Source of the DNA: Bacillota bacterium
GTDB taxonomy: Bacteria; Bacillota; Sulfobacillia; Sulfobacillales; JAIMBI01
Length of the DNA: 64,000 nucleotides
Direction: 5' to 3'
Assembly: GCA_021846505.1 (NCBI GenBank)
Contig: JAJZWV010000002.1
Location: forward strand, 46,163 to 110,162
Part shown: piece after piece, positions 19,735 through 38,404 of the stretch
Layout of the letters: each line of letters begins with the position of its first letter
Numbering within the stretch: the stretch's first letter is position 1
Notes under the pieces: generated by a model
What the model was told of the DNA's origin: nothing
Database searches by the model: none
What the model saw: the letters and a program-made list of their open reading frames with translations, nothing else
Program-made: the position numbers and the translations under genes

Positions 19735-19749
19735 GCAGGCTCAAAAAAG

Positions 19750-19824
19750 TGGTGCGCCCGAAGGGACTCGAACCCCTGCTTCAGGCTCCGGAGGCCTGCG
19801 TGATATCCACTTCACTACGGGCGC
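19750..19824 (-). tRNA. tRNA-Arg (anticodon CCG), CCA encoded
   Basis: A 75-nt cloverleaf folded by hand: acceptor GCGCCCG/CGGGCGC, D stem GTGA/TCAC, anticodon stem CAGGC/GCCTG with loop CTCCGGA, T arm AGGGG-TTCGAGT-CCCTT, discriminator A, then CCA. Confidence 0.93.
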
Positions 19825-19835
19825 GACCTGTACGC

Positions 19836-19864
19836 AGTGTAGCACAGTGAGCCAGGCCGAGCAA
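19836..19864 (-). promoter_or_regulatory. Putative promoter of tRNA-Arg
   Basis: The minus strand has TTGCTC (19864-19859), a 17-nt spacer, and an extended -10 TGcTACACT (-10 at 19841-19836). This lies about 12 nt upstream of the mature 5' end. Confidence 0.5.
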
Positions 19865-19967
19865 CCGCCGCCGGCGCTTTGGCTGAGGCCCGCCCCGCGC
19901 GGCGCGGCGGGCGCGACGCCAAAATGCTAGTATATGGCATGAACAAGCCCCTAAGGGCCGTTGCGCC

Positions 19968-21050: not shown

Positions 21051-22019
21051 CACCGTGTGTGTTTGGCCGTCTCCCCATCGGGCTGGGGGCGCTCTAACAT
21101 TCAGGGGGCCCGTCGCGGCCCGCTAGCCCAGGGAGCGTGCGCCAGGCTCGCCCCGGAGGCGGTCAGCGGCGCAGTCTGCCGCAGGATCTTGGGCAGGTCG
21201 CCACCGCACAGTGCGATCGCCACGCGTGGGGACCTTGGCCAGTGAGCCAGCCGTGCCCAGCCACGATCCTCCGCGGGCTCCTCGGAGCCAGGACCGCTGT
21301 CCATCGCGGTGTGAGCCCGGTGTTGGTCTGTGGATTTGCTCCAGTGGATGGGAAAGCTCGCCTGGGAGGGCGGGGAGGCTCACACAGCCACTCCCCGGTT
21401 CGACCGCGCTCTGCCGCCGGGTTCGCGGCCACCGGCCCCGGGGGTATGGGCCGCGCTGGGGCCCGTCCGGCCCCCGGCGCGGCAGAGTGCGGGACCCGTG
21501 CACTACCGGGGACTCTGAGGGCGCAGACGCACGGGCGCATCGTCTGGGGCGCCTCGAGCCACGACCAGTGGGTGATGTTAGAATGGCCGCCTCAGCACGA
21601 CCTGCTGGGGGACCCTCACCGGCCCCGCCAGGCCGGGCGAGATCTGCCGGGGCCGCCCGCCCCCGCCGGCGCGGCTTCAGCGATGCGGGTCCCGGACTTG
21701 CCCAGCATGGCGCGCGCAAGGCGGCTGCGCTTGATGTTGGCGCCGTCGCACCCCTGCAGGAGGTCGTTGCCGTCCGTCGTCCGCGCCCCGATGGTGCGCT
21801 TGCGGCTAAAGGAGCACCGCCATCCCCTTCACGTCTGCCGGCCCATCCCACAGGTTTCAGCATAGTGCCGCGGCCGCGAAGGTGATACCCTCCGGTGGGC
21901 GCACGGCGCTGGCCTTCCTCGTGGCGTGGCCCGGTACGCGGCGGAACGCGGGCGCCGCTCGGCGGGCGTGCGAGCGGCTTGCTCCTGCGGCATTCCCGAG
22001 CGAGGTGGAGGTGCATCGC

Positions 22020-22697
22020 GTGACTGTTGTATATGTATTGGCCGATTTGTCCCAGGCGAACCGGGTTGCGCGAGCCGGGGCGAACCTGGTGCGGCGCGTT
22101 GATGCCTATCACACGCTGCTGGCCGGTCGCTCGGATTGGGACTGTCCTCGGGGCTGGGCATTCCACGATGCGGAGTCGGCACGCGAGGCCTTTGGCCACG
22201 CACTGCCTGCTTGGACCAGCACCACCACGCAACTCGTCCATATCGCGCCGGCACCAGGGGATTGGCACGCGCTATATGCGGGGGTCGTCGGCTCCATCTC
22301 CGATCCCCGCGTGGCGCCCTATGCCATCGTGACCAGCGAGGATGTGGCCACCATCGCCGGCCATGAGCTCACCCACCACTTGCGGGCCTTTCGGAATACG
22401 CCGCCGGGAGCCGAGTGGTTCGAAGAGGGCTTCTGCTTCGGGGTGCCTCGCCAGCAGATCCTGGCACCCCGTCGATTGGCCGCGGTGACAGCCGCCGAAG
22501 CCGCACTGACTGAGGCCTACGCCGCTCGATTGGGGACCACGGAGGTTTGGAGCTTCGGGGCTAATGATGACGGGTCGGGATGGCCCGCCGCCCTTTATGA
22601 CTACGCGGGCGATCCCTGGGCCGCTCTCACCGCGTTTGAAGCGTGGAATGAGCGGCACCGCCACACCCCCTTGGCCGAGTGGCTGGGGGTCAGGTGA
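22020..22697 (+). CDS. Hypothetical HExxH (zincin-like) protein
   Basis: HELTHH motif with a downstream EWFEEG. RBS GAGGTGGAGGTG lies 6 nt before the GTG at 22020. GC3 is high and no family name was recognised. Confidence 0.65.
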   Translation: MTVVYVLADLSQANRVARAGANLVRRVDAYHTLLAGRSDWDCPRGWAFHDAESAREAFGHALPAWTSTTTQLVHIAPAPGDWHALYAGVVGSISDPRVAPYAIVTSEDVATIAGHELTHHLRAFRNTPPGAEWFEEGFCFGVPRQQILAPRRLAAVTAAEAALTEAYAARLGTTEVWSFGANDDGSGWPAALYDYAGDPWAALTAFEAWNERHRHTPLAEWLGVR

Positions 22698-22764
22698 CGC
22701 CGCGGACCTGACGCGCCGGCAAACACGCTGCCCTGGTCATGCACTCTCCCATGCGGCTAGGCGC

Positions 22765-23649
22765 TCAGCGCCGGTTCGAAGCGCCGGGCGCCGAGTCCAC
22801 GCCATCCCAATACCGCGCGATGCTGGTTTCGTCCGCGTCGGCGTCCTTTGCCGCCGCGCGCGCGAAGGCGGAGTGCGCCGCCGCGGCCAGCACCGTCGGA
22901 AACCCGAGGCCCTCCGCCATTTCCAGCGCCAGCCGCAGATCTTTGGTGCGGTTGGCCAGCGAGAAGCCCGGCGCCAGCGCGCGGGTGGGCCAGCGACTCA
23001 GCAGCTTGTCCACTTCGAACGAGCGGGCCGAGCTGGCCGGCAGCACCTCGGCCAGCACGTCAAAGGCAATCCCGGCCGCCTCCGCCAGCCGCACCCCTTC
23101 GGCGGCGGCCAGGAGATTTAAGCCCGACACCAGGTTGGCCACCAGCTTTAAGCTTTGGCCGGCGCCACTGGGCCCCGCGTGCACAATGCGCTGGCCCACC
23201 GCCGCCAGCAGCGGGCGCACCGCGGCAAAAGCGTCCGCGTCCCCGCCCACCATAATGGTGAGGGTCGCCTCGCGGGCCCCCACGTCGCCCCCGGTCACCG
23301 GCGCGTCCAGCCAGGTGAGCCGGCGGCGGGCGGCCTCCGCCGCCAAGCCCGCGGTGGCGGTGGGCCCAATGGTGGAGAAGTCCACAAAGATCGCCCCGGG
23401 CTGCGCGCCGTCAAAAAGCCCGCCCGCGCATACGGCTTGGACCGCGCTCCCGTCTGTCACCATGATCGCCACCACGTCGGCGTTCGCCGCCAGCTCGTGG
23501 AGCGAACCCGCGGCATAGGCGCCGGCCGCCGCCAGCGGCTCCATGTGCCGCGGCGTCCGGTTGTACACCTGCACCTCAAACCCCGCGTGCAGCAGGTTTT
23601 CGGCCATGGGCGCGCCCATGACGCCGAGGCCCACAAATCCTACGCGCAT
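22765..23649 (-). CDS. Beta-hydroxyacid dehydrogenase family (3-hydroxyisobutyrate / tartronate-semialdehyde-reductase-like)
   Basis: MRVGFVGLGVMGAPMAENL Rossmann start, DAPVTGG and GAGQSLKLVANL motifs. Start is the ATG at 23649 with AAGGGGG upstream. Confidence 0.9.
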   Translation of the reverse strand: MRVGFVGLGVMGAPMAENLLHAGFEVQVYNRTPRHMEPLAAAGAYAAGSLHELAANADVVAIMVTDGSAVQAVCAGGLFDGAQPGAIFVDFSTIGPTATAGLAAEAARRRLTWLDAPVTGGDVGAREATLTIMVGGDADAFAAVRPLLAAVGQRIVHAGPSGAGQSLKLVANLVSGLNLLAAAEGVRLAEAAGIAFDVLAEVLPASSARSFEVDKLLSRWPTRALAPGFSLANRTKDLRLALEMAEGLGFPTVLAAAAHSAFARAAAKDADADETSIARYWDGVDSAPGASNRR

Positions 23650-23671
23650 GATGCAACCCCCTTTATCCACT

Positions 23672-24598
23672 CTATGAAGTAGCTCCAGCCCCCGGTTCGG
23701 CGCTCTCAAGGCCATCGCGCGGCCAGCGCGCGGCCGCCTCGGCCATCGTGCGGACCGGCACCACCAGGCCCACGGGATAGCTTCGCAGGTGGGCGAGAAG
23801 GCTCTGCCGCACGCGCCGGCTGCCAGCGAGCACCCCGCCCACCGCCACCAGCGGCCACGGCGGCTGCCCCATATCGCCTGCTTGCTCCAAAGCCGCCGCC
23901 ACCTGCAAGGCCAACTCTGAGCCAGCGCCGTCCAGAATGCTGCTCGCCACCCCGTCGCCCGCCCGGTCGGCCTCGTCCACCAGCGCGGCCAGGCCGGCAA
24001 TGTCATGCCGCGCGGTGCTGGGGCCGTACACGTGCGCCACTGCTTCCCGGAGGGTGGCCGCCCCAGCCCACGCGCAAATCAGGGTGGTGAGCTGCGTGGC
24101 CGGCCCTCGCCCATCCGCCGCCCGCGCTGCGGCGACGAGCGCCTGCCGGCCAATGTCGCCGCCGCTGCCCTCGTCGCCCATCACACTGCCCCAGCCTCCT
24201 ACGATGGCCCGCCGCCCGCCGGCATTGCGCGCCATCACCAAAGAGCCCGTGCCAGACACCACGGCCAGGCCTGGCCCCCTCACGCCGCCCGCCGCCAGGG
24301 CCAGGTCGCCTTCGTGGCAGCGTCGCAGCGCCGCTCCTGGGAGCAGCCGGTGCGCCACTCGCGCCAAAACGTCCGTCGACACCGGCCCCCCAAACACCAC
24401 CCACTCGACGCGGGCCGGATCCGCGCCGGTGCTAGCCAGCGCCCCCTCCATGGCCACAGCCAGCGCCGCCTCGGCGGCCGCGCCAGGGACAAAGTGCGGG
24501 TTGCTGGGCCCGCCGCGGCCCCGCCCGACGGCGTCCCGGCCGTCGCACAGCACCGCCTCGGTTTTGGTGCCGCCCCCATCGAGCCCCAGCACCCACAC
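23672..24598 (-). CDS. BadF/BadG/BcrA/BcrD-type ATPase (N-acetylglucosamine-kinase-like sugar kinase)
   Basis: LGLDGGGTKT, VVSGTGS and GGWGSVMGDEGSG motifs. The GTG start overlaps the upstream stop by 1 nt. Confidence 0.85.
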   Translation of the reverse strand: MWVLGLDGGGTKTEAVLCDGRDAVGRGRGGPSNPHFVPGAAAEAALAVAMEGALASTGADPARVEWVVFGGPVSTDVLARVAHRLLPGAALRRCHEGDLALAAGGVRGPGLAVVSGTGSLVMARNAGGRRAIVGGWGSVMGDEGSGGDIGRQALVAAARAADGRGPATQLTTLICAWAGAATLREAVAHVYGPSTARHDIAGLAALVDEADRAGDGVASSILDGAGSELALQVAAALEQAGDMGQPPWPLVAVGGVLAGSRRVRQSLLAHLRSYPVGLVVPVRTMAEAAARWPRDGLESAEPGAGATS

Positions 24599-25356
24599 TA
24601 GGGAATCACCGGGCTCGGCCAGGCGCCGCGGCGCGTCAGCTCCTCCAGCACCGCCCGATTGTGCTCCGCACCGCCGGGCTGGTTGCCGCTCAAGAGGACC
24701 GGCGGCGCGAGCCCTGCAGCCTGGAGCCGCTCCACCGTGCGAAGCAGCCAGGCATGCAGCAGGAACGAGCCCGCAATCGTTGACACCGGGCCCAGCGGCA
24801 CGGGCGGACTCCCCGGCGCGGCCAGCGCCGCATCGCCCAGGGGCACCCCGCTGTCCAGCACCACGGCGGCAAAGTCGGCCACGGTGGGGCCTGAGGCGGA
24901 CCCGGCGGCGGCGCGTGACGTCAGCGCCACCACCGATAAGCCCCGCGCCTGAGCTTGGGCCGCCATTTCGACCGGCACCGGGTTTCTGCCCGAAGTGGAC
25001 ACCACCAGCAGCACATCACCAGGCTGGACAGGTGCGTGGTCTAAGACGCGGGCCGAAAGTCCCGGCAGCCGCTCCAGCGCCGAGCCGTACTCGGGAGCAC
25101 CGGTATCGAGCCGCAGGCCCGGCACATGAATCGGGTTCATGAACACCGGGGTCGCCGCCCGATAGTACAGGTCATCCACCAAAAGTCCCGAGTGGTTGCA
25201 GCCGAAGCCAAACAGCTGGTGCTGGGCCTGCCAGGCGTCTGCGAGCAGGGCGGCGGCCCGGTCCAGCTGCGGCGCCTCCCGCTCGGCAATGGCGGCCAGG
25301 TGGCACGGCACCCACGCCATCCACTCCCCCATGAGGCTCTCCACCGGCGGCCGCAT
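24598..25356 (-). CDS. SIS-domain protein (UPF0309-like), paralogue 2
   Basis: SIS core GDVLLVVSTSGRNPVPVEMA ... LSVVALTS. It is paralogous to the upstream gene and overlaps it by 1 nt (TGATG). Confidence 0.8.
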   Translation of the reverse strand: MRPPVESLMGEWMAWVPCHLAAIAEREAPQLDRAAALLADAWQAQHQLFGFGCNHSGLLVDDLYYRAATPVFMNPIHVPGLRLDTGAPEYGSALERLPGLSARVLDHAPVQPGDVLLVVSTSGRNPVPVEMAAQAQARGLSVVALTSRAAAGSASGPTVADFAAVVLDSGVPLGDAALAAPGSPPVPLGPVSTIAGSFLLHAWLLRTVERLQAAGLAPPVLLSGNQPGGAEHNRAVLEELTRRGAWPSPVIP

Positions 25357-26102
25357 CAGATGCCCAGCTCCCGGTAGCGGGCCATCGCGTCCCGGTAGCG
25401 CTCAGGCCCGTCCGGGTAGTTGACGCTGCGAAATACGGTCGGCTCAATGCCCCGCGCCACCAGCGCCTCCGCCACCTCGCCCACCAAGCACCACGCCGCC
25501 AGCGCGGCGCTGATGCCTGACGAGGGCAAAAGCTTTTCCGGCAGGCCGGGGAGCGCCACTTCGGCGTCGCCCGCGCTGGTGTGCGTGTCCAGCACCACCT
25601 GGGCCGCCTGGTCCAGCCGCTGGCCGGACGGATGGGCCGGCGGCAGGCCCGACGCATGCGCCAGCGCGGTCAGCGCGATGGTGAGTGCGCCCCGCCGGGA
25701 TGCCTCTTGCGCCATCTCTACCACCAGAGGGCTTCGCCCCGACACGGATCCCAAGAGCACCACGTCGCCGGTGCGCACGCCGGCGTGCTGCACGGCCAGC
25801 CGCGCCAGCACCAGCTCCTCCTCGTCTCCGTCCACCAGCGGGTGCGTGGGCTCGCCGCCCCGGCGCAAGGCGCCGGACCCCCATCGGGGCCGCACCAGCG
25901 TGATGGGCGCCAGCAGCGCCAGCCCCCCGGCCCGGTTAAACAGCTCGCTGGTCAGCAAGTGCCCGTTGTCGTACACGAAAAAAATGCCGCCAGCCTCGAT
26001 GCGGCCGGCAATCTCGCCGGCCAAGCGCGCGATCTCGGGCACATCCTCGGCGAGGCTTCCCACGATGCGCCGCATCGCGGCGAGATACTGTTGCGCCAGC
26101 AT
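25356..26102 (-). CDS. SIS-domain protein (UPF0309-like), paralogue 1
   Basis: GGIFFVYDNGH and GDVVLLGSVSGRSPLVVEMAQEASRRGALTIALT, with the C-terminal tail YPDGPERY typical of UPF0309-type SIS proteins. Confidence 0.85.
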   Translation of the reverse strand: MLAQQYLAAMRRIVGSLAEDVPEIARLAGEIAGRIEAGGIFFVYDNGHLLTSELFNRAGGLALLAPITLVRPRWGSGALRRGGEPTHPLVDGDEEELVLARLAVQHAGVRTGDVVLLGSVSGRSPLVVEMAQEASRRGALTIALTALAHASGLPPAHPSGQRLDQAAQVVLDTHTSAGDAEVALPGLPEKLLPSSGISAALAAWCLVGEVAEALVARGIEPTVFRSVNYPDGPERYRDAMARYRELGI

Positions 26103-26135
26103 GGCGTTCCTCCTCTCAGTGCGCTCCGAGCGGCG

Positions 26136-26351
26136 CTAGGCGCGAAACAGCTCCACGTGGCCGCACTCGGGGCACGTGCGCACCTCCAGCGGCAGGCGCG
26201 TCTCGGCCAGCTGGTTGATGCTGCCCAACAGCATCCCCGAAAGCCCGGTGGCACCCCCGACCCGAAACTGCAGCACTCCTTGGCTCTCCAGCGGCCGCTG
26301 GCACCTCAGGCAGTCGAGCGCCGGGCCCGTCACTCCTCCAGATCCACTCAT
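26136..26351 (-). CDS. Small zinc-ribbon protein
   Basis: 71 aa with CLRC ... CPEC pairs. RBS GAGGAGG lies before the ATG at 26351. The rest of the 180-aa track ORF is antisense junk. Confidence 0.6.
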   Translation of the reverse strand: MSGSGGVTGPALDCLRCQRPLESQGVLQFRVGGATGLSGMLLGSINQLAETRLPLEVRTCPECGHVELFRA

Positions 26352-26418
26352 AGCGATTCCTCCTCGCGGCGTCCGGGTGGATAGCCGCTCAACCCAAGAC
26401 CGCGCGCCTATCCGTGCC

Positions 26419-26988
26419 CTATCCCACCCGCTGATTGTACGCGCCCAGCTCCCAGCGGCCCCGGTCGTATGTCGTCCAGGACAAACTGCAGTTGGCCAGC
26501 TGCGCGTGAAAGCTGCCGATCGCCCCGGTGGCCACCAGACCCAGCACCGCGTTGATGCTCCCCCCGTGCGCCACCACCAGCACTCGCTGGCCCGAATACT
26601 CGGCGGCCAGCCGATCCAAAGACGCTTTTCCCCGCGCGCCCAGCGCCTCATACGGCTCGACGCCGGGCATCTCGCCATTGGGAAAGCGCCGCTCGCGCTC
26701 CGCCCAGGTGAGCCCCTCGCCCGTGCCGTAGTGGCGCTCCATCAAGGTGTCCCAGAGCGCCACGGGGGCAAGCTCGGTGCGGGCCGCAATAATTTCAGCG
26801 GTTTCGCGGGCGCGCGCCAGCGGGCTCGCCACAATGGCATCCCACGGCAGCGCCGCCAAGTGGGCCGCGCAGCGCGCGGCCTCCTGGCGCCCGCGCTCGT
26901 TCAGCGGCACATCCGACTGGCCCTGCAGCCGCCCATCCCGATTCCAGTCCGTCTGCCCATGGCGCACCCAGCATGCGATCGTGCTCAC
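26419..26988 (-). CDS. Histidine phosphatase (phosphoglycerate-mutase-like) family protein
   Basis: RHGQTDWN catalytic motif, SPLARARETA and VVAHGG. Start is GTG at 26988 with GGAGGAAG upstream. Confidence 0.85.
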   Translation of the reverse strand: MSTIACWVRHGQTDWNRDGRLQGQSDVPLNERGRQEAARCAAHLAALPWDAIVASPLARARETAEIIAARTELAPVALWDTLMERHYGTGEGLTWAERERRFPNGEMPGVEPYEALGARGKASLDRLAAEYSGQRVLVVAHGGSINAVLGLVATGAIGSFHAQLANCSLSWTTYDRGRWELGAYNQRVG

Positions 26989-27050
26989 TTCGACGACTTC
27001 CTCCACTCTCCCCGCCACTGAATCTATGGAAGGGGCACTATGTTCGAAAG

Positions 27051-29765
27051 CTATCGGCGCTTCTGGCCCGGAGAACCCGCGTCCACCACAAACCGATAGC
27101 GCCCGGATCCCACCCGGCAGTGCACCGCCGCCCCCCCGAAGGCCAACACCTCCACGCCGGGCGCCTGGGCCAGCGGCCGCCGGCTTTCCCAGGCCGCCTG
27201 GCCCGGTGCCAGCGGCAGGCGCACGGTGGCGGTGGTGGACGGCGGCACACGCAAGCCCAGCACCAGGCGGCCGCTGGCCCGCTGGGTCCACCGCACCCGC
27301 ACCGAGCCGGCCGGGGTCGCACAGGTGGCCGACACCCACCCCATGGTGGGGTCAGGGACGGGCGCCACCACCACCGACTGCAGGCCGGGGTCCGCGGGGT
27401 CAGGCCGCACGCCCGCCACCCAGCCAAACAGCCAGGCCCCCACCGATCCCAAGGCGTAGTGGTTGAACGAGTTCATCTCGGGGTTTTGGAACCCCCGGTC
27501 TGGTGTCCACCCGTCCCACCGCTCCCACATGCTGGTGGCGCCGTGGCGAATCATGTAGCCCCACGACGGATAGGTCGTCTGAGCCAGCAGCTGGTGCGCC
27601 ACCTGGCCCAGCCCCGCGTCACTCAGCACCGGGAGCAAAAACGCGGTGCCGGCAAACCCGGTGGACAGGTGGCCGCCGCGCGCCGCGATGTCATCCGCCA
27701 GCTGCCGCGCGATGCCCGGGCGCGCCGCCTCGGGCGCCAGCTGCATGTGCAGGGTGAGCACGGCCGCCGTCTGGGTGGGGTGCAGCAGCTGGCCGCTGGC
27801 GGGGTCCAAAAACGCCTGCTGGTATGCCTCGCGAATGTGCTGCCAGAGCGCCTGATAGCTTGCGGCGTCGGCCTCCCGCCCGAGCCGGCTGGCCATCGCC
27901 GCCAGCTGGCGGACATCTTCGGCGTAGTACGCGGTGGCCAGCAGCGTGGAGTCGGTGGACGGGTCCACCGCCAGCCAGTCGCCGAAGTCGTTGGCCCGGC
28001 GGTGCCGCCACAGGCCGTCGGGGTTGGCATCGGTGAGATAAGCCACCCAGCGCTGCATGGCCGGGAAATTTTCCGCGAGCATCTGCCGGTCGCCATACCG
28101 CGCATACAGTGCGGCGGGCACCAGCACGCCTGCGTCGCCCCACGCCGGGGCGCCGTCGGCTTCGTCGACAATGCGGGGGGCGACGTCGGGAAAGGCGCCC
28201 GCGGCCGACTGGCTGTCGCGCACAGTTTCCATCCAGCCGCTGAAAAACGCGGCCAGATCCCGGTTGCACAGGGCCGTGTCGGCAAACGCCTGCGCGTCTC
28301 CCAGCCACCCCAGCCGCTCATCGCGCTGCGGGCAGTCGGTGGGCACCGCCACCAAATTGCCACGCTGGCTGGTCACGATGTTCGCCTGCAGCTGATTGGC
28401 CAGCGGAAGGCCGCATCGAAACTGGCCGGCCACTTCGCTGGCGCTTTCCAGCACCAGGGCCGACAGCGCCGGGGGCGCCGCCAGCTCGCCCGCGGCCGTC
28501 ACTTCCACATAGCGAAATCCCCGGTACGCGAACGTGGGGTGAAAGCGCTCCAGGCTCGGCTCGCCGCTCTCTTCCCGAGCGCCCGCCAGCGTGAAGAAGT
28601 CGGTGCACGCCGCCGCCCGGTAGTTGTCGGTATACAGCTGGCCGCTGGCGTCCAGCACTTCCGCACACCGCAGCTGAAGCATAGTGCCGCGGCTCCCCGA
28701 CACCGTGAGGTCGGGCTGGCCCACCAAGTTGCGGCCGAAGTCAAACAGCCAGGCCCCCGGCCGCGGCGACACGGCTGAGATGGGCTCCACCCGCTCGGTG
28801 GCCACCACCCCATCGTCGCGGTCGGCCGTCACCAAAATGGGCGGCGCCTCCCGCGCCACGGCGGGGCGCCACCCGGATAGCGCCAGCGGCGCCTCGCACC
28901 AGTGCGGCACCTCCCGGCGCGCATCGTACGCTTCGCCCATGAGAAAGTCCGAATACAAGATGGGGCCGGAGCGGCCCTGCCACTGGCCATCGGTGCCTAA
29001 GCAGAGATGAGTGCCGTCGGAAAGCTCCACCTCCAGCTGCGCCAAGAGGGCGGGACGGCGCCCATACAGCTGGCGGTGCCCGCCAAATCCCAGGTACCCG
29101 GCGTACCAGCCGTCGCCCAGCAAGAGGCCCAGCACGTTGGCGCCGGCTTTGAGCAGGTTGGTCACGTCATACACCTGATACCGCACCCGCCGCCGATAGT
29201 CGGTCCACCCGGGCGCCAGCCGCTGGCGACCCACGCGCTGGCCATTGACATACGCCTCATACACGCCGAGCGCGGTGGCATACAGGCGGGCGCGCACGGG
29301 GCGAGCCGGCAGCGCCCACGCTCTGCGCAGCAGGGCGGGTGCCGACAGCACTCGGGCGACGGGCGGCGCCGCCTCGGGAAACTCCGATGGACTTTCGGGG
29401 TCGAGCGCGATCCACTGGGCCGTCCAATCGGCTGAGTGCAGGAGCCCCATCTCCCAGGTGGCGGGCGTCGACTCCCGCGACCACTCGCCCTGTTCGTCGC
29501 GCACCTGCACCGTCCAGGCAAACGCCTGGCGCGACCGGGCCTCGGGCCCGCCACACGGCACCACCGGCTCTCGGCCCGGCACTACTCCGGAGTCCCACCA
29601 CAGGCGCTGGCCCGCGGCGGATACCTCCCACACCCGCACGCGATAGGCGGTCTGGCGGCGGCCGCGGCCGGCCCCGCGCAGGCGCCAGCCGAGGCGCGGC
29701 CGCACCGCGTCAATGCCCAGGGGATTTTGGCGATACTCGGTCGCTAGATCGCAAGGCGTGAGCAT
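27051..29765 (-). CDS. Alpha-L-rhamnosidase, GH78
   Basis: About 900 aa with the typical GH78 N-terminus (L.TEYRQNPLGID...PRLGW) and an (alpha/alpha)6 region (PTDCPQRDERLGWLGDAQ). Start is the ATG at 29765. Confidence 0.9.
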   Translation of the reverse strand: MLTPCDLATEYRQNPLGIDAVRPRLGWRLRGAGRGRRQTAYRVRVWEVSAAGQRLWWDSGVVPGREPVVPCGGPEARSRQAFAWTVQVRDEQGEWSRESTPATWEMGLLHSADWTAQWIALDPESPSEFPEAAPPVARVLSAPALLRRAWALPARPVRARLYATALGVYEAYVNGQRVGRQRLAPGWTDYRRRVRYQVYDVTNLLKAGANVLGLLLGDGWYAGYLGFGGHRQLYGRRPALLAQLEVELSDGTHLCLGTDGQWQGRSGPILYSDFLMGEAYDARREVPHWCEAPLALSGWRPAVAREAPPILVTADRDDGVVATERVEPISAVSPRPGAWLFDFGRNLVGQPDLTVSGSRGTMLQLRCAEVLDASGQLYTDNYRAAACTDFFTLAGAREESGEPSLERFHPTFAYRGFRYVEVTAAGELAAPPALSALVLESASEVAGQFRCGLPLANQLQANIVTSQRGNLVAVPTDCPQRDERLGWLGDAQAFADTALCNRDLAAFFSGWMETVRDSQSAAGAFPDVAPRIVDEADGAPAWGDAGVLVPAALYARYGDRQMLAENFPAMQRWVAYLTDANPDGLWRHRRANDFGDWLAVDPSTDSTLLATAYYAEDVRQLAAMASRLGREADAASYQALWQHIREAYQQAFLDPASGQLLHPTQTAAVLTLHMQLAPEAARPGIARQLADDIAARGGHLSTGFAGTAFLLPVLSDAGLGQVAHQLLAQTTYPSWGYMIRHGATSMWERWDGWTPDRGFQNPEMNSFNHYALGSVGAWLFGWVAGVRPDPADPGLQSVVVAPVPDPTMGWVSATCATPAGSVRVRWTQRASGRLVLGLRVPPSTTATVRLPLAPGQAAWESRRPLAQAPGVEVLAFGGAAVHCRVGSGRYRFVVDAGSPGQKRR

Positions 29766-30144
29766 GGCGCCTGCCCCCTCTCTCCGGCTACTCTCTCCCC
29801 GCACCGGGGCTCCAGGCCACGCCCGACGGCATTGCCGCTGATTATCGGCGGGCGGATGCGCCTTGGCAACTGGCGGGCGGTGCTCGTCTGGGCGGCGCCT
29901 TCACCGGCAAACGGCCGCGGGGATATCTCGCGTCCCCTCGCAGCGGGGGCCGCCGGCGCGGGCGTCCGCGCCGGCCTCCATGAATGCTGGGAGAGTCTTC
30001 TCCCACGCGCCCGCCGACACTCTCTTGGGCTAATGCCCGCGTTCCCCAGCAGCACGGGAAAACGCGGACACAACGTCGGGGCGGGGCGCTGCCGTAGACT
30101 GCCTCGCTCCTGGCATAATAAAGGCATGCGAGCTGCAGTCGACC

Positions 30145-30462
30145 TTGTCCCCGATGGCGCGAGCAGAGTTAGGGGAGGAATTGTTGGCCACATTTGATTT
30201 TCCGCGCCGCTCAGCAATTGACACCGCATGGAGTGCAGAGGCAGAGACTCGCCTGGGGGACTTTGAGCGGGGCGACATGCAGACATTTTCTTCCGACGAG
30301 GTATTTCGGCGGCTGCAGGCGCCGTCTATGGGCGGCCAGCGTTCCGCTTGCGTGGCGGCGAATTCAGAGCGATCGCGGCCCCTCGTGCCGACCGCATCCC
30401 TTGATCTGCGAACGGATGGCCGCCGTAGTGTCCGCCGTGCACAGGGATCGGATAGGCGTTGA
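30145..30462 (+). CDS. Addiction-module antitoxin-like ORF (Unstab_antitox/ParD-like) fused by read-through to remnants of its ParE/RelE toxin
   Basis: LGEELLATFD...IDTAWSAEAETRLGDFERGDMQTFSSDEVFRRL matches the 'putative addiction module component' pattern. Another frame downstream carries a toxin-tail-like RPHPLICERMAAVVSAVHRDR, but there is no toxin N-terminus. Confidence 0.55.
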   Translation: MSPMARAELGEELLATFDFPRRSAIDTAWSAEAETRLGDFERGDMQTFSSDEVFRRLQAPSMGGQRSACVAANSERSRPLVPTASLDLRTDGRRSVRRAQGSDRR

Positions 30463-30494
30463 CGTATGACACCGTAGCCCGATCGTGTGCACTA

Positions 30495-30530
30495 GGGGGC
30501 GGGGGGGGGGGGGGGGGGGGGGGAAGGGGG
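30495..30530. repeat. Extreme G homopolymer: G5-C-G23-AA-G5
   Basis: Read directly from the sequence: 30495-30499 G5, 30500 C, 30501-30523 G23, 30524-30525 AA, 30526-30530 G5. That is 33 of 36 nt G. Confidence 0.99.
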
Positions 30531-30623
30531 CCAAATATCGTGGGCCTCCGGACGGGGCCATAGAAGCAAGAGGGGGAAAAACATTTTGCCCGGCGGCAAG
30601 GCAACAGCGTCAGCGAGACGCTG

Positions 30624-30935
30624 GTGGAACTTGTTGAAGAAGGGTTGCGCGCGGCGGAATACCCGCTCGTTCAGTTTCGGGACCGCTCCGTGGGACGAGA
30701 GGCGTATGTGATGGGAACCAGCACGGCGGTGTGGCTTGCGCGCTTCTTCGCCGGTGATGCCGACGCCGTGGCAGCGCACCTGAACTGGCCCTGAGCGAGG
30801 GTCAGGGCGGCGCTGAACGACGGCGCGCGATTTCCGGAGGAGATCCAGGATGCCCTGGAAGATATGGAGCGGGACCCGCGTGACCTCCAGGCGATGCTGC
30901 CGAGCCTGCGCGTGGCTGCGGTCGGCGATGAGTGA
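30624..30935 (+). pseudogene. DUF433-like (antitoxin-like, HTH) gene with an in-frame TGA
   Basis: VQFRDRSVGREAYVMGTSTAVWLARFF...AAHLNWP-TGA(30792-30794)-ARVRAALNDGARFPEEIQDAL. The same frame continues across the stop, and the pattern matches my recollection of DUF433-type proteins paired with DUF5615. Confidence 0.55.
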
Positions 30936-30938
30936 TCG

Positions 30939-31320
30939 GTGAAGTTGCTCTTGGATGAGCACCTGGCGCCAACGCTCGCCGCATCCCTCCGCGCTCAGGG
31001 GATTGATGCTGTTGCGTTGGCGCAGTGGCGCGGCGGCGGTGTGCTAGGGGCGCCGGAGGAGGACCTCCTTCGGGAAGCGATGGTCGAAGGGCGCGTCTTG
31101 GCAACATACGACCGGCGCACGCTCCTGCCTCTTGTTGCGCCGTTGGGCTGAGCATGGGCTACCGCACGGCGGCGTGATTTTAGTCGATGGCCACACGGTG
31201 CCTCCAAACGATATCAAGAGGGTACAGCGCGCACTGGTCAAGCTTGTATGCAACGAGGGAGAGACCCCGTGGGTCGACCGGGTGCTGTACTTAAGGGTCG
31301 CGCCTTCTGACCGCGACTAG
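30939..31320 (+). pseudogene. DUF5615-like (PIN-like putative toxin) gene with a frameshift
   Basis: ORF 30939..31151 (KLLLDEHLAPTLAASLRAQGIDAV...) and ORF 31132..31320 (RRWAEHGLPHGGVILVDGH...) form one domain. The frame switches at about 31125-31140. Confidence 0.65.
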
Positions 31321-31401
31321 ACCTCCCCCTTTGCTTCCCTTCAGTGGTCGAGGGTGGTGCTGAAGCCGATGCCCGGGACCGGGAGTAGGCCCCGAGTCGC
31401 C

Positions 31402-32307
31402 TTAGCCCCAAAGACCCAAGGCCACCACGCCGGCCGCGATCAGCCCGGCGGCGGCTATCCGCCGACGCCCATGGGACTCGCCCAGCACCACAACCCCTAG
31501 CACTGTGCCAAACACCGTCCCAACCGCCCGCATGGGCGCCACCTGCGCGGCGGCTGCCTCGCGAAGGGCCAGCAGGAACAGCAGGTAGGACCCGGGGGCT
31601 AGGATGCCCGCCAATATGATGGTCTGCCGGGTGCGCGCCCATTCCTTTCGCACCACGCCCGAGCGGAGAGCCCACCAGGAGAGCGCTAGCACGTTTGCAA
31701 GGTTGCCTGCGTCGTTTAAGGTGACGGCGGCCACGTACGGGAGTGCCACTTTGTCCAAGAGGGTGTAGCCGGTAATCGCGAGGCCCACGGTGAGCGCTAG
31801 CCGCGCCGCCCTCGGAACGCCAGCCCGTTGGCCGTCGCTAGTCCGCCAGTGCCAGTCGCCCAGCAGCCAGATGCCAGCGACGATGGCACAAATCCCCGCC
31901 CAGCCCAACCCCGACACGGCCTCGCCTAAGACGGCCACCGCCAGGATAGGCACCAACAGCGGGCTCACGCCGCGCATCATGGGGTACACCTGAGACAAGT
32001 CCCCCGCGTCATATGTGCGCGACAGGAAAATGACGTAGATGCCGTGCATGGTGACGGCCGCCGCCAACATCAGCCACCCTCGTCCCGAAATGGGGTGACT
32101 GGCCAGCGCGTAGAGCGCCCAAGGCAGAAACGCCAAAACGGCCACGCACTGAAACAGCCAGAGAAACACCACGGGGTGGGCGCTGCGCTTGGCAAACAGA
32201 TTCCACACGGCATGGAGCAACCCCGACATGGCGACCAGCACAAAGGCCCACGACGACAAAACGAGCCTCCTTTGCGGGAGACTCTTCAGGGGACTGTTCA
32301 TGGCCAC
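31402..32307 (-). CDS. EamA/DMT-superfamily transporter
   Basis: 301 aa with 10 predicted hydrophobic helices in two EamA-like halves. Confidence 0.9.
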   Translation of the reverse strand: MAMNSPLKSLPQRRLVLSSWAFVLVAMSGLLHAVWNLFAKRSAHPVVFLWLFQCVAVLAFLPWALYALASHPISGRGWLMLAAAVTMHGIYVIFLSRTYDAGDLSQVYPMMRGVSPLLVPILAVAVLGEAVSGLGWAGICAIVAGIWLLGDWHWRTSDGQRAGVPRAARLALTVGLAITGYTLLDKVALPYVAAVTLNDAGNLANVLALSWWALRSGVVRKEWARTRQTIILAGILAPGSYLLFLLALREAAAAQVAPMRAVGTVFGTVLGVVVLGESHGRRRIAAAGLIAAGVVALGLWG

Positions 32308-32908
32308 ATGGGCAAAGCCAGCAATAGCCCTGACCTAGTCGCCGCGTGGCACCCGAAACCCTTCTTCCATCCGGACTGTACCGTCGGCACGGGATTCGCA
32401 CCCGTTCATGCCGTCGGGCCCCCGACACGCGGAGCCCCGACGGCTCGTGGGCTTGTCAGCCTCGCTGAATCACCACCGATCGGGAATTGGCCGCTGCAGG
32501 CCGGCCTCACCCTGCCCTGAAGGTCTATGCAGTTGTCAGGTACGCTAGGCCACGGTGGGACCGGTGTCAAGGACACCGCGGGACGCAGTGCGCCACACCA
32601 AAGTGGCCAGCCCTTGACCAGTCTCTCGCTGCGGGCATTCTGACCAGGCAGTCGGTTGGCCGCACGCCCCGGCCTAAGCATTCCCTGACTTTCGAGCAGA
32701 AGATTCTAGTGGCCGAATTTGCAAGCCCTGACGCCCGCCGCCGTGCGGGGCGACAATGGGCCCCCCCTCCTCACAGCGTTCGTCTGGGGCTACGTCATCT
32801 CAGCCCTCTGCGGCCGCCCGGTCGAGAAGGTCCCCGCACCCGCAATTTCGGACCATCTAACGGCAACCTGGGGGCTTGCACCCCTTGTCACAACCATTAG
32901 CCAAACGA

Positions 32909-33352
32909 TCAGATGAGATCATCAAGGGATAAGAGCTCGCACATTCCAGTCTTCGCTTTCCACGCTCTATCATTGCTAATAATCATTGGGCAATGAAACG
33001 CTTGCGCCGTCGCAACCAGCAGGGAGTCGGGCAAGGGGAGCTTCGTCTCCCCTCGTATCCTCGCTCCTAGCCGCGCTACCTCGCGGTTGACGGGAGCTAC
33101 CAGGAGGCCGGGAAACTCGGCGAAAAATGTGTCCAGAATCCGCAGGGCGGCTTCGTCGCGCTCCACTTCCGGGCCAACTCGAAGTTCCGCTTCGGTCACC
33201 ACGGACACCACGCCCTGCACGCTGCCCGAGGCCACTTCCCGAAAGAGGGCTTGAACCGCGCCGCGAAAAACTTCGACGCCGGACAAATAGTAAATAATCA
33301 CGTGGGTGTCTAGTGGCACGCGCTTGCCCGCCAACCGCTCTAGGTCCGCCAT
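32909..33352 (-). CDS. vapC: PIN-domain toxin
   Basis: LDTHVIIYYL (first acidic residue), TEAEL, and LPLPDSLLVATA...ISND, all typical of VapC. It overlaps the antitoxin gene by 13 nt. Confidence 0.85.
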   Translation of the reverse strand: MADLERLAGKRVPLDTHVIIYYLSGVEVFRGAVQALFREVASGSVQGVVSVVTEAELRVGPEVERDEAALRILDTFFAEFPGLLVAPVNREVARLGARIRGETKLPLPDSLLVATAQAFHCPMIISNDRAWKAKTGMCELLSLDDLI

Positions 33353-33579
33353 GAGTCACGCTCTGCTCGGACCCACTGGTCCACTTCGTCCGCAGAGTGA
33401 AACCGACCCGATAGCACACCGGCGAAAAACTCAACGGGATCCTCCGGCACTTTGCGCAACCGCAGTTCGCCGTCCGTCGCATCCATCCAGATCCAGTCAT
33501 GAGGCCCGAGGCCAACCTCCTTGGCCAGTCTGCTTGGCAATGTTATTTGCCGCTTGCTGGATATTCGTATCGCCGGCAT
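33340..33579 (-). CDS. vapB: AbrB/SpoVT-type antitoxin
   Basis: N-terminal swapped-hairpin motif (IRISSKRQITLPSRLAKEVGL) lying immediately upstream of the PIN gene. Confidence 0.8.
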   Translation of the reverse strand: MPAIRISSKRQITLPSRLAKEVGLGPHDWIWMDATDGELRLRKVPEDPVEFFAGVLSGRFHSADEVDQWVRAERDSWRT

Positions 33580-33914
33580 ACGCCTCTGCTCAAGTCGGCC
33601 GCCGAGAGCGTCGCGTGTCTGACATTGTTCAAGACGTCGAATTGGGTAGAGATAGCGCCGGCGGCCTTCCGACAGGGCTTCGGCGGCTTCCGGAACAAAG
33701 CCCTGGAACTAGCCACAGCCAGAAACCGAGGATGGAAGGTCCCTAAGCCTCGGGTGCTCCAGCATCATCGACGGGTCGCAATCGGACAGGATCTTCACCG
33801 GCACGGCGAAGGCGGCGCAAGGCCCCTCCCAAGGCGCGACTCATCCGAGCCACCAAAGACCGCCCCGCCCCAGTGCCTCTGCCGCCCTGCCGTGGCCGAC
33901 CCGCCAAGTCCCGC

Positions 33915-35282
33915 CTACGGCGCGGCGGGATTGACACCGCTGAACGCGATGGCCCACTGGCGCCCGCCATCGGTGGAGCGCCACAGCTCGGCCCGAGATC
34001 CCACATCCACCAGTGCCCACTGGTCGGCCGCGCTCACAAAGTCCAGCTGCTGCACCACGGCCGCACGGCCCAGTTGTGGGCGCAGGACCACGATCCACCG
34101 CAGCAGGGCGTGCGGCCCCCCGCCAAAATACTGCCCGGGCGGCCCGTGCCCCCCCGCGCGGCCCATGCCGGGCTCCAGTGTCGCCCCCGTCCAGGCGTTG
34201 GGTCCCACCGACGTCAGCACAGGCCGAATGCCCCAGGTGCCGAAGGCCGGCGCCCAGGCGGCGCCCCCCGTGCTGGTAGTGAGCACCCGCACGCGGTCCT
34301 GTCCCACGGGCGCCCCGGGGGTGGCGCTCGCGTCCACCCACACGCCACTCAAGCCATAAAACCTGGGCACCCCGACCAGCTGAGCCAGCCCGGCGCCAAA
34401 CGGCACCGCGCGCCACGGGCCCCGGCGGCCGGCTGGGCCCGATATCCACAGGTGGTGGCGGCCGGCGCTTTCCAGCAGCAGGCGGCCCCGGGGCGCGGCA
34501 AACAGGCTGCCCGCGTCCTCGGTCCCGCCCGAAAAGCCCCGCAGCACGCGCTGGGACCACGTCTGCCCCCCATTGTGGGTGCTCCACAGCAAGTCCGGCT
34601 GGGTCGGCCGTGATCCAGCTTTGCCATACCAGCTGCCGGCGACCAGCAGGAAAGCCGTGCCCGCCGGGCCCAGCGCCAGGGCATGGGTGGACAGGCGCCA
34701 GCTCGCCGGCCGGGCCGGGCCGGCAATCTCGGTCCACCGCCAGGTCCGCCCGCCATTCTGGGTGTGGTACACCGCGACCCCCTTGGCGGTGGCGACCGCC
34801 CACCAGGCGTCGGTGGCGGATCGTGCTTCAAACGCGCCCGCGGCGCCGGCGTCTTCAAGCGGGGACACGTTGGTCCAGTGCTGGCCGCCATCGCGGGTGG
34901 CGAGAATCTCCCCCGGCGCGCCCATTGCCCACCCGCGCCCATCGGCTTCCATCCACACGTGCGACAGGCCGCCCGTACTGGCGCGGCCCAGCCCCAGGAC
35001 CAGCCCGGTGCCGGGCCGGCCCACCGTACCCTGCGCGGGCTGGCCCTGGTAGTAGTAGCGGTGAACGAGGGATGGGCCGGCCATCGCGGCCGCCGCCACC
35101 ACCGCGGCCGCGGCCACCCATCCCGCCATGGGAAGGCGCGGCTGCCATGCTGCCCGAGCGGGCGCGCCCAGCTCCCACCGCCGGCGGTCAAAGGCCGCCG
35201 CCGGCGGCGGCGGCAAAGTGACCCCGGCCCGCAGCGCGCCATCCCCCCAGTCTTCGGCTGCGCCCATTTTCTTCCCGCTCAT
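33915..35282 (-). CDS. Membrane-anchored BNR/Ycf48-like beta-propeller protein, probable anti-sigma partner
   Basis: Cytoplasmic N-terminus, one TM (AGWVAAAAVVAAAAMA), then repeated S/T-x-D-G-G-x-T-W motifs (TRDGGQHW, TQNGGRTW, THNGGQTW, STDGGRQW). It overlaps the sigma gene with ATGA. Confidence 0.7.
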   Translation of the reverse strand: MSGKKMGAAEDWGDGALRAGVTLPPPPAAAFDRRRWELGAPARAAWQPRLPMAGWVAAAAVVAAAAMAGPSLVHRYYYQGQPAQGTVGRPGTGLVLGLGRASTGGLSHVWMEADGRGWAMGAPGEILATRDGGQHWTNVSPLEDAGAAGAFEARSATDAWWAVATAKGVAVYHTQNGGRTWRWTEIAGPARPASWRLSTHALALGPAGTAFLLVAGSWYGKAGSRPTQPDLLWSTHNGGQTWSQRVLRGFSGGTEDAGSLFAAPRGRLLLESAGRHHLWISGPAGRRGPWRAVPFGAGLAQLVGVPRFYGLSGVWVDASATPGAPVGQDRVRVLTTSTGGAAWAPAFGTWGIRPVLTSVGPNAWTGATLEPGMGRAGGHGPPGQYFGGGPHALLRWIVVLRPQLGRAAVVQQLDFVSAADQWALVDVGSRAELWRSTDGGRQWAIAFSGVNPAAP

Positions 35283-35875
35283 CGCTCATTCCTCCCGCTG
35301 GTCGGTTGATGGGCCTCTCCCGCACGCCACGCCTCCAGAAATCGGCGGCGCGCTCGAAACAGCCGCCCGCGCACGTTAGCCCGGGTGACGCCCAGCCAGC
35401 GCGCAATGTCCAGTGAGCTCCACCCTTCGTAGTAGAACAGCCACAGCGCGGACCGGTCGGCCGGGCTCATTTTCTCCAGGATGTCCGCCAGGTCCAGCCG
35501 ATCCACCGCCGGCGACTCCCAGTCAGCGCCGGGCGCCCTCACCGCCTCCGCCTGCGCCAGCCGCTCGCGGCGGGTCCGCGCGCGCAGGCGGTCAATCGCC
35601 AGATGCTTCACGATCCGGTAGAGAAACGCCGGCTCGACGATGCGGGCGGGGTGATGGCACTGCCACCGGTACAGGCGCCAGAACGCCTCCTGCACGATGT
35701 CCTGGGCATCCTCTGGGTCCTCCACCAGCACCTGGGCGTATCGCACCAGCCGATCGCCGTACGCCTCCACCCATCGGCTGACCGCTTGCTCCACCTCACT
35801 GCGGCCGCTCCCGCCGGTGACCTTGATGCCCTTCACCTCCCTGGCCAGACGGCCACGGCTATCCTCACCCAACAA
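35279..35875 (-). CDS. ECF-type sigma-70 factor
   Basis: Region 2 ([14 protein letters not shown]) and region 4 ([36 protein letters not shown]). Confidence 0.9.
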
Positions 35876-35920
35876 ACGATCCTAAGCGCGCAAGTGTTGA
35901 AGGCGGGCTCCGACTTCTCC

Positions 35921-35950
35921 AACGTCAAAAACGTCCGAAACGTCAAAGAG
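35921..35950 (+). promoter_or_regulatory. Triple ACGTC direct repeat (PurBox-like) upstream of purEK
   Basis: AACGTCAAAA-ACGTCCGAA-ACGTCAAAGAG forms an AT-rich island about 115 nt upstream of purE. The central ACGTCCGAAAC partly resembles my recollection of the Bacillus PurR PurBox (..CCGAAC..). Confidence 0.3.
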
Positions 35951-36063
35951 GGCCGGACCTCACCCGCCTGCGGGTGTGCTTGGGGGAACCGCCGCCCGCG
36001 TGGCATGATGGCAGAAAGCCCGCAAGAGCGGGTCAGCTTGGTTGGCGGGGGAGAGAACGCATC

Positions 36064-36549
36064 ATGCAGGAGCTCGAGCCGGCCGTCGCCGTCATTATGG
36101 GCAGCCGTTCTGACTTAGATACTATGCGCCACGCCGTGGACATCTTAGAGCGGTTCCAGGTTCCGCACGAGGTGGCCGTGGTGTCCGCCCACCGCACCCC
36201 GGACTTGATGTTTGAGTTTGCCGCCGCCGCGCGCGCGCGGGGGATCCAAGTCATTATCGCGGGCGCGGGGGGCGCCGCCCACTTGCCCGGCATGGTGGCC
36301 GCCAAAACGACGCTGCCGGTGATTGGCGTGCCGGTGCAGAGCCGGGCGCTCAGCGGCTGGGATTCCCTCCTCTCGATTGTGCAGATGCCGCGCGGCGTGC
36401 CGGTGGCCACCGTGGCCATTGGCGAAGCCGGCGCCGCCAACGCCGGCCTGCTGGCGGTGCAAATACTCTCCCTCCACGACGCGCGGCTCACCGAGGCGCT
36501 GGCCGCCTTTCGGGCGGAGCAGGCCGCGGCCGCGCGGGCGGGCCGATGA
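36064..36549 (+). CDS. purE: N5-carboxyaminoimidazole ribonucleotide mutase
   Basis: [17 protein letters not shown] and [13 protein letters not shown] motifs. Start is the ATG at 36064, after GGGGGAG. Confidence 0.95.
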
Positions 36550-37706
36550 CCGGCGCGCGGCCGCTGCCGCTGGGCAGCGCCATTGGGATTTTGGGGGGCG
36601 GCCAGCTGGGGCAAATGACCGCGGTGGCGGCGCGGCGGCTCGGATACCGCTCCGTGGTGCTGGATCCCGATCCGGCCTCGCCCGCCGCCCAGGTGGCCGA
36701 CCAGCTGATCCAGGGCAGCCTCGAGGACCGCGCCAGCATCGAAGCCATGGCCCAGCATGCGGCGGTGGTCACCTATGAATTTGAGAACGTCTCCGCCGAT
36801 GCGGTGGCGGCGCTCGCCGAGCGCGTGCCGGTGCATCCCTCCAGCGATATCCTGAAAACCTCCCAGCACCGCCTCCGCGAGAAGGCGGCGGTCGTGCGGC
36901 TGGGCGGGCAGGTGCCGCCGTTCGCGGCGGTCGGGTCGCCGGCCGACTTGGAAGCCGCGCTGTCGTCGCTTAGGCTCCCGGTCGTCATTAAGACGGCCAC
37001 CGGCGGCTATGACGGCAAGGGGCAGGCGGTTGCCCGCACGGCCGCGGAAGCCCGCGCGGCCGTGGTCCAGCTGCTGCAGGTGTGTGACACCCTGATTGCC
37101 GAGGAGCAGGTGGACTTGGCGCTGGAGCTGTCGGTCATCTGCGCCCGGGACCAGCAAGGCCGCCTCGCCACGTATCCGGCGGCCGAAAATCGCCATGTGC
37201 ACGGCATCTTGGATGTATCGTCCACGCCCGCCCGCGCCAGCGGCGCCGTCCTCGGCCGCGCCGACGCCGTGGCGCGCCAGGTGGCCACCGGCCTGGGCTT
37301 GGTGGGCGTGATGGCGGTGGAGATGTTTGTCGACCAGCAGGGCCGCGTGCTGGTCAACGAGATTGCGCCGCGCCCGCACAATTCGGGCCACCACACGATC
37401 GAGGCCAGTGCCACCTCGCAGTTCGAGCAGCTGGTGCGCATGGTCGCGGGCCTGCCGCTGGGGGACACCCGGGTGGCGCGGCCCGCGGCCATGGCCAATT
37501 TGCTGGGTGACTGGTGGGGCCCCGACGGCACCCCGCCCGATGTCGCCCGCATGCTGGCGGTGCCCGGGGTATCCCTGCACCTGTACGGCAAGGCCGCCGC
37601 ACGCCCCGGCCGCAAGATGGGCCATTTAACGGCCGTCGGGGACACCGTCGAAGACGCCGTGGCCCGCGTCCTCAAAGCCCGCGGGGACCGGCCACCCACC
37701 GCCTAA
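36546..37706 (+). CDS. purK: N5-carboxyaminoimidazole ribonucleotide synthase
   Basis: ATP-grasp PurK pattern ([36 protein letters not shown]...GRKMGH). It overlaps purE by 4 nt. Confidence 0.95.
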
Positions 37707-38011
37707 CCCTCGCCGTGGGGCGACGGAGCGCGAGTGAAATACAAAAAAGCCGCCATGCCGGCATCGCTGACCGCATCGGTTGGGCCGGCGGGGACGGGTC
37801 CACCCCGCCCCGGGCCGTCAGCGGGAAGGGGCTACGCCGCCGTGGTGCCCGGCCGGGTGAGCCCACACAGCCAAGGGCAGATGGCAGGGCCCGCCTGCCG
37901 GCTCGCCCTGCATTCCCTTGCCAGAAACCCGCCCGGCGGCACCGGCGCCAGCGTTCGACGCGAGGCCGCCGGGATGCGGTTCCCTACAGATGCATGTTGG
38001 GCGCTCGACGC

Positions 38012-38404
38012 TCACTCCGCTGTGGAAGCGAGCACATGCACGTCCGCCAGAGCGGTTTCCGCCGCATTTTCTCCCAGCACCGCTTGGCCATCCGCCGTGA
38101 TGAGCAGTCCCCCGACCGCCACCACCCGGCACCAGTAGGTGGCGTCGATTTGCCGGTGGAGCGTCGCCAGGTAATGCGCGTAGTCCGTGCGGTGCAGCTC
38201 CACCCGCCACTGAGAGTCCGACTTCGTCTCGTGGGCAATCGCCAGCGCCGGCCCGTTCCAGTATGGGCGGCCGGCTGCCGTCACGCTGGCCCAATGCCGG
38301 TCGATAGCGGCGCGGACCTGGTCGGGCAGCGCAGCGGGCAGGTCCACCACCCGAATGCGCCAATCCTGGGGCATCGGCTCCACGGTCGTCGCATGCTTTT
38401 CCAT
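38012..38404 (-). CDS. Hypothetical protein, possibly the N-terminal part of a truncated Nudix-type hydrolase
   Basis: YWNGPALAI ... RTDYAHYLAT ... VVAVGGLLITADGQAVLGE resembles the region preceding a Nudix box, but the ORF stops before any GX5EX7REUXEEXGU motif. Confidence 0.45.
   Translation of the reverse strand: MEKHATTVEPMPQDWRIRVVDLPAALPDQVRAAIDRHWASVTAAGRPYWNGPALAIAHETKSDSQWRVELHRTDYAHYLATLHRQIDATYWCRVVAVGGLLITADGQAVLGENAAETALADVHVLASTAE

Follow-up and report, generated by a model that had tools for sequence, protein, structure and literature searches.

A 36-nt G-rich string between decayed toxin-antitoxin modules most likely overlays sequencing errors on a shorter genuine G-run

The 64,000-nt stretch of DNA analysed here (the window) carries a G-rich string whose right third, together with the adjoining 57 nt, is most likely a sequencing and assembly error lying over a shorter genuine G-run. 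Our preferred reading, to which we give a probability of about 0.7 on sequence comparisons, is that a genuine G-run was inflated by short-read miscalls crossed in assembly. The case is an ordinary one, explained by phenomena that are already known. The features discussed are collected in Table 1.

Table 1. Coordinates of the G-rich string, its flanking modules and their genomic setting in the window
Feature	Position	Strand	Basis or remark
GH78 alpha-L-rhamnosidase gene	27051-29804	-	
Lineage-specific 6.3-kb segment containing the tract	29805-36085	.	Rhamnosidase and purE about 240 nt apart in L001/L002
Upstream (promoter-side) region of left toxin-antitoxin module	30074-30131	+	80% identity to L085 2893-2951
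Unstab_antitox (PF09720) antitoxin remnant	30143-30312	+	Pfam E=9e-8; 83% nucleotide identity to intact genes
Spacer where a ParE remnant had been placed (182 nt)	30313-30494	.	No ParE or Pfam match
Probable real core G5-C-G16, about 16 G's	30495-30516	+	7 G's verified by L081, the rest read in the window alone
Right part of apparent tract, overlying real sequence	30517-30530	+	ATCGGGCAATGCCG in L081, L092, L093
RHH + DUF433-like antitoxin pseudogene	30525-30935	+	Family HMM; in-frame TAG 30561-63, TGA 30792-94
Substitution patch, 11 window-only substitutions, likely miscalls	30531-30587	+	L081, L092, L093 mutually identical there
GGC-type trigger GCCGCCGGGC (minus-strand order)	30588-30597	-	Directly precedes first mismatch, 30587
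DUF5615/PIN_10-like toxin pseudogene	30939-31320	+	Frameshift near 31130-31150
EamA/DMT-family transporter	31402-32307	-	Within the 6.3-kb segment
FMN riboswitch (Rfam RF00050)	32355-32528	-	85.9 bits; directly upstream of EamA/DMT-family transporter
VapBC pair, apparently intact	32909-33579	-	147-aa PIN toxin and 79-aa upstream partner
ECF sigma factor and 455-aa protein	33915-35875	-	Sigma factor 35279-35875 overlaps start of 455-aa protein

Read directly from the window, the string at 30495-30530 consists of five G's (30495-30499), a C (30500), 23 G's (30501-30523), AA (30524-30525) and five further G's (30526-30530), just as the preliminary description of this DNA had it in counting 33 G's among 36 positions with an unbroken run of 23. 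Its statement that the tract is without equal in the 64 kb also holds, the second-longest homopolymer being 7 nt, and poly-Pro ORFs do cross the tract in all three minus-strand frames. The string is far above chance level; at the G content of the window, the expected numbers of G23 and G16 runs are 4e-7 and 9e-4, and the longest homopolymer among loci fetched from genomes both related and unrelated, 1.37 Mb in all, is 12 nt.

Same-species contigs from other samples were retrieved through exact-protein look-ups. The right flank is covered by three metagenome contigs from three samples: L081 (ERZ27237466), L092 (ERZ27237474) and L093 (ERZ27237493). Further contigs came from ENA samples (L082, L084, L089) and from Logan (L083, L090, L091); two of the latter, L083 and L091 (SRR13222494), match the window at 100% identity. 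L081, L092 and L093 are near-identical, and since SNPs elsewhere separate them from one another, they represent different strains. All three end at the tract, at window-equivalent positions 30510, 30520 and 30514 respectively, with L081 (aligned to window 37864-30534) carrying seven G's of the run, aligned at 30510-30516, and L093 carrying three.

These contigs contradict the window over tract positions 30517-30530. Where the window reads G...G-AA-GGGGG-CCA, the three contigs have GGGGGGG-ATCGGGCAATGCCGTCC in register and ungapped; L081, taken from its very start, reads GGGGGGG ATCGGGCAATGCCGTCCAATATCGTGAGCC against G...G AA GGGGG CCAAATATCGTGGGCC in a gap-free alignment. The three are mutually identical over 30517/30520-30587, and across the 71 nt of 30517-30587 the window has 18 substitutions of its own and no indels, while the next 6030 nt (30588-36617) hold a single difference between L081 and the window. 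Within 30517-30529 the window has G at each of the six C/T positions of the shared allele and at one of its three A positions, and the AA that the window retains at 30524-25 is in register with the AA of GGGCAATGCC.

The window-only substitutions have a marked direction. At 16 of the 18 sites the window has the same base as a neighbour of that site in the shared allele, and the reverse is true at only 2 of 18 (Fisher p=5e-6); for the patch 30531-30587 the corresponding counts are 10/11 and 2/11. Control substitutions elsewhere between the contigs and the window (n=141) give 76 matches in the one direction vs 59 in the other. Each change lengthens a homopolymer (for example GCGGG to GGGGG, GTAAAG to GAAAAA and TTTGG to TTTTG). 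Taken in the order of the minus strand, the presumed miscall is one of the two preceding bases in 15/18 cases vs 60/145 controls (p=3e-4). A search of the window and of 1.4 Mb of loci for a gene-conversion donor of the patch found none.

A perfect 8-bp inverted repeat, formed by GCCCGATC (30477-30484) and, in the shared allele, GATCGGGC (30516-30523), surrounds the G-run and is lost in the window version. We rejected an extended inverted repeat or hairpin around the run, as the pairing is of only 8 bp and its score was reached by 149 of 2000 shuffles, which is not significant.

Illumina sequence-specific errors are runs of miscalls, low in base quality, that follow GGC or inverted repeats (of 8 bp or more) in one read direction; the miscalled base agrees with the one or two bases read before it, and the published trigger is a GGC that lies no more than 10 bases upstream of where the errors begin (PMC3141275). 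The footprint in the window is most likely of this kind (lagging-strand dephasing), to judge from the sequence pattern: in minus-strand order the cluster begins within about 10 nt downstream of a GGC (GCCGCCGGGC, 30597-30588), it copies preceding bases in the proportion given above, and, like the errors described by Nakamura et al. (2011), its substitutions start right after GGC, extend over tens of bases and include no indels. Unlike those errors, the ones in the window stand in an assembled consensus instead of individual reads, and they span some 70 nt, compared with about 40 nt. Mismatch errors on Illumina instruments are moreover elevated at G-quadruplex (G4) motifs (PMC10519405).

Two-channel chemistry leaves G unlabelled and gives A both labels (PMC11140927). 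Beside the run the window resembles no-signal poly-G from this chemistry in that every C or T has become G and AA, the double-labelled base, has been kept; that AA persists where its neighbours are miscalled as G fits the labelling scheme. It differs from dark-cycle poly-G, which forms 3' tails after real sequence, in that its G's lie in register over real bases. We rejected a pure dark-cycle tail since in L081, L092 and L093 genuine + strand sequence follows the G's, so that the contigs end in C's on their own strand, the wrong orientation for dark cycles; what we find is neither a run appended at a 3' end nor a join between unrelated flanks. Of the technical artefact suspected in the preliminary description, then, an error footprint is indeed found, at 30517-30587, and the proposed bridging of unrelated contigs by no-signal poly-G fails on orientation and on synteny (below).

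The gene to the right of the string bears on which version is real. In three other assemblies the antitoxin begins with an ATG equivalent to window positions 30525-30527, that is, within the apparent tract, where the window has AGG; the shared allele translates as MPSNIVSLRMRP*QRERVKHLARRQGNSVSETLVELVEEGLR... A family profile built on 13 homologues (100-200 aa) from an exhaustive HMMER search aligns with the shared, L081-type allele from residue 1, covering positions 1-139, and scores it at 150.5 bits, the window version reaching 135.6; restricted to the first 42 residues, the values are 37.8 vs 22.5 bits. Similarly, tblastn with the homologues aligns from residue 2 in L081 and only from residue 19 in the window, and several RHH families match the shared version weakly and the window version not at all. 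Judged by these profiles, the shared allele encodes a complete ribbon-helix-helix N-terminus, with similarity over the full length from the N-terminal ribbon strand; because the profile fits from the first residue, the gene is full length, without 5' truncation. In the shared allele 8 nt separate the end of the G-run from the ATG downstream, a Shine-Dalgarno-like position for the run.

The families that had been named for this right-hand remnant are borne out, the antitoxin as DUF433-like (DUF433 is borderline in the homologues, 23.5 bits vs a cut-off of 23.6) and the toxin by Pfam DUF5615 (E=2.7e-7 for the N-terminal part and 1.7e-9 for the joined frames, profile positions 1-100 of 110); its start had been put at 30624 and moves to the ATG at 30525-30527. 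Both antitoxin stops and the DUF5615 frameshift are present in all four strains, leaving the gene pair dead in each.

The left-hand module is decayed in a different manner. Its Unstab_antitox remnant lacks about 78 nt of the 5' end, including the start codon; intact relatives in L085-L088 have a 77-aa antitoxin followed by a 101-aa ParE, and the part of L085 that resembles the promoter-side region (2893-2951) lies just upstream of an intact Unstab_antitox/ParE module. The ParE-type remnant that had been drawn at 30145-30470 thus keeps its antitoxin portion, by Pfam, and loses its ParE portion: in 30313-30494 tblastn with the cognate L085 ParE gave no match at E<=10, Pfam on frame-corrected translations gave none, and no fetched locus contains DNA resembling it. 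The idea that the string marks a junction between two remnants is likewise half sustained, the left remnant being 5'-truncated and the right antitoxin being full length with its start 8 nt past the run. One of the intact relatives, L086 (JAJZWS010000077.1), lies on another contig of the same MAG as L001 (see below), where it adjoins transposase-associated and defence-type genes (DDE_Tnp_1_assoc, DruA, NACHT/TPR), a setting consistent with a mobile toxin-antitoxin cassette.

The preferred reading may be set out as follows. A genuine G homopolymer would occupy the 55-nt spacer between the two decayed modules, followed on its 3' side by ATCGGGCAATG, and would most likely have grown by replication slippage in a non-functional module. 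Reads entering from either side would dephase or lose signal at the run, and ordinary assemblies would stop there; the window assembly would have crossed it by following reads with systematic miscalls. This route would have turned ATCGGGCAATGCCG into GGGGGGGAAGGGGG, extending the run from about 16 to 23 G's and creating the AA-G5 tail, and would have left 11 more substitutions that copy a neighbouring base, as far as 30587, while the clean allele, a dead-end tip of about 70 nt, would have been clipped by the assembler. The true sequence, as best we can estimate it, is CACTA-G5-C-G~16-ATCGGGCA-ATG, in which only seven G's are independently verified; a figure of about 16 real G's is suggested because dephasing repeats only the last 1-3 bases and would not give 16 or more identical calls unless a real run lay underneath.

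Two cautions apply to the error reading: consensus sequences seldom keep this many systematic errors, and this population naturally contains short recombination patches of high divergence (for example 31222-31270 and 44939-45131). Together with the location in a pseudogene under no selection, such natural patches lend some credit to the possibility that the window is correct as written and that its strain carries G5-C-G23-AA-G5 plus the 18 substitutions, through localised mutagenesis or import of a diverged allele. Neighbour-copy substitutions are a known signature of template-dislocation mutagenesis, and 'dislocation' errors of a translesion polymerase beside a replication-blocking G-tract or G4 would be expected to leave the same pattern. 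We nevertheless consider a real allele improbable, since it would have 25% divergence in 71 nt next to one difference in 6030 nt, in a patch bounded by the run on one side and by the GGC trigger on the other, with no indels despite the adjoining slippage-prone run; the other allele is common to three different strains, no donor copy was found either in the window or among the fetched loci, and the neighbour-copy signature is one-sided. A more specific proposal, that the G4-forming homopolymer, lying on the leading-strand template, stalls replication again and again and that restart by an error-prone polymerase writes neighbour-templated substitutions in a dense gradient over the adjoining 70 nt, the run being extended by substitution instead of slippage, strikes us as very improbable; if true, this would amount to tract-anchored localised hypermutation in a bacterium.

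The opposite alternative is that no long run exists, with perhaps 7-10 real G's and the rest contributed by no-signal or dephased reads closing a coverage gap. Seven G's are indeed all that is independently verified, and at least 14 tract positions are demonstrably not G in other assemblies, yet all three of the MEGAHIT contigs break exactly here, which 7-10 G's would not normally cause; at least 16 unbroken identical calls would probably need a long real run, given the 1-3 bases that dephasing repeats, and the G's precede genuine + strand sequence, the wrong arrangement for dark-cycle tails. We regard this alternative as unlikely. The flanks might instead be non-adjacent, joined through poly-G k-mers of unrelated contigs or across a collapsed gap. 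They are joined in no second assembly: in the collections searched, no contig besides the window's own assembly spans the tract, and the left flank 28314-30494 (2.2 kb) has no contig in the searchable public assemblies. Neither a spanning nor a left-flank contig emerged from exact-protein look-ups with the rhamnosidase (from M14), the 102-aa antitoxin and the 56-aa, 180-aa and 92-aa ORFs, or from exact-pattern scans of JGI metagenomes and of IMG/VR with each flank; cluster look-ups gave no additional members, and a protein search with the rhamnosidase N-terminus gave a best identity of <= 52%. Also in favour of a misjoin, within ERZ27237466 L089 stays 99.955% identical to the window (17091-28313, over the whole contig), whereas L081 diverges beyond 36617. 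Against it, rhamnosidase lies beside purE/purK in both L001 and L002, with the relative orientation that they have in the window, a neighbourhood that a random chimera would not recreate, and L081 ties the right flank continuously to purK. A misassembly of this kind is accordingly very unlikely in our estimation, although loss of some sequence at the run is possible.

The synteny in question comes from the closest genomes found, the 'Bacillota bacterium' MAGs L001 and L002 (rhamnosidase protein identity 68%), in which about 240 nt separate rhamnosidase from purE. The genes that bracket the segment are thus neighbours in relatives, and on this ground we rejected a chimera between replicons; that the flanks derive from different replicons or contigs is unlikely on this comparison. 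Two observations on contig ends may be added. L089, from the same sample as L081, ends within the rhamnosidase gene at 28313. L090 (SRR13222495) and L091, from different strains, both begin at window-equivalent 30630, about 40 nt to the right of the last window-only substitution; this common start could be a shared graph branch caused by a repeat or by another allele.

The tract lies in a lineage-specific segment with a G+C fraction of 0.646 over 29805-33900, as compared with 0.71 and 0.69 in the flanks. To the right of the toxin-antitoxin pair the segment contains an EamA transporter, VapBC, and an ECF sigma factor plus its BNR-repeat partner, before purE/purK. The transporter is a candidate riboflavin transporter because of the FMN riboswitch directly upstream. 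The VapBC toxin recurs as an identical protein in three other samples, beside two toxin-antitoxin modules that have decayed. The 455-aa protein has weak PSII_BNR (Ycf48-like) matches, and with the ECF sigma factor it may form a sigma factor/partner pair on the inserted segment. Elsewhere in the window, a c-di-GMP-I-GGC riboswitch aptamer (RF03167, 70.6 bits) is found at 54386-54474 (+). After its one SNP over 30588-36617, L081 shows about 7-12% divergence from 36618 onward (window 36618-38054), a sharp boundary that suggests recombination inside purK. Short patches similar to this divergent stretch occur at 31222-31270 (L090, L092), 44939-45131 (L084) and 27959-27982 (L089).

A contingency-tract or G4 role for the real core of the run is possible. 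Like the poly-G contingency tracts of Neisseria and Campylobacter (PMC5084427, PMC6321876), the core is a G homopolymer well above the slippage threshold and just upstream of a start codon; unlike them, it precedes a pair that is pseudogenised in all strains seen here, and its host is an environmental, Bacillota-like lineage of high G+C, in which the 64 kb contain no further tract of this kind. Phase variation would have nothing to switch, because both genes downstream are dead in each of the four strains; the repeat is neither in nor just upstream of a functional gene. From the earlier suggestion of slipped-strand contingency we therefore retain a slippage-sized run before a start codon and lose, through the stops and the frameshift, the functional gene to be switched. 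The flanking genes belong to families of type II toxin-antitoxin modules (Unstab_antitox/ParE type on the left, RHH-DUF433-like with DUF5615/PIN_10 on the right); unlike intact modules of that type, the left antitoxin is without its 5' end and has no detectable ParE, and the right pair has two stops and a frameshift. The G4 motif (a minimum of four blocks, each with three G's or more; loops of 1-7 nt) occurs both in the window and in the reconstructed G5-C-G16, and G4-aware minimum-free-energy folding predicts a quadruplex within the run in both versions. G4 formation would be compatible with the sequence, in a tract that, unlike structured G4 motifs, is a plain homopolymer.

The main value of the case lies in quality control: window positions 30495-30587 are unreliable base by base, the run length and the left junction are as given by the window assembly alone, and the antitoxin start codon has been erased by miscalls in the window. 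For other scans, a practical test is to compare the consensus with independent contigs of near-identical strains, where a one-sided neighbour-copy asymmetry separates systematic short-read errors from real variation. For the organism, a G-run of about 16 nt before a dead antitoxin gene would be a biological curiosity with no evident function; it probably has no demonstrable present role, and the most economical view is that of a neutral homopolymer that would have expanded by slippage in a decaying toxin-antitoxin island.
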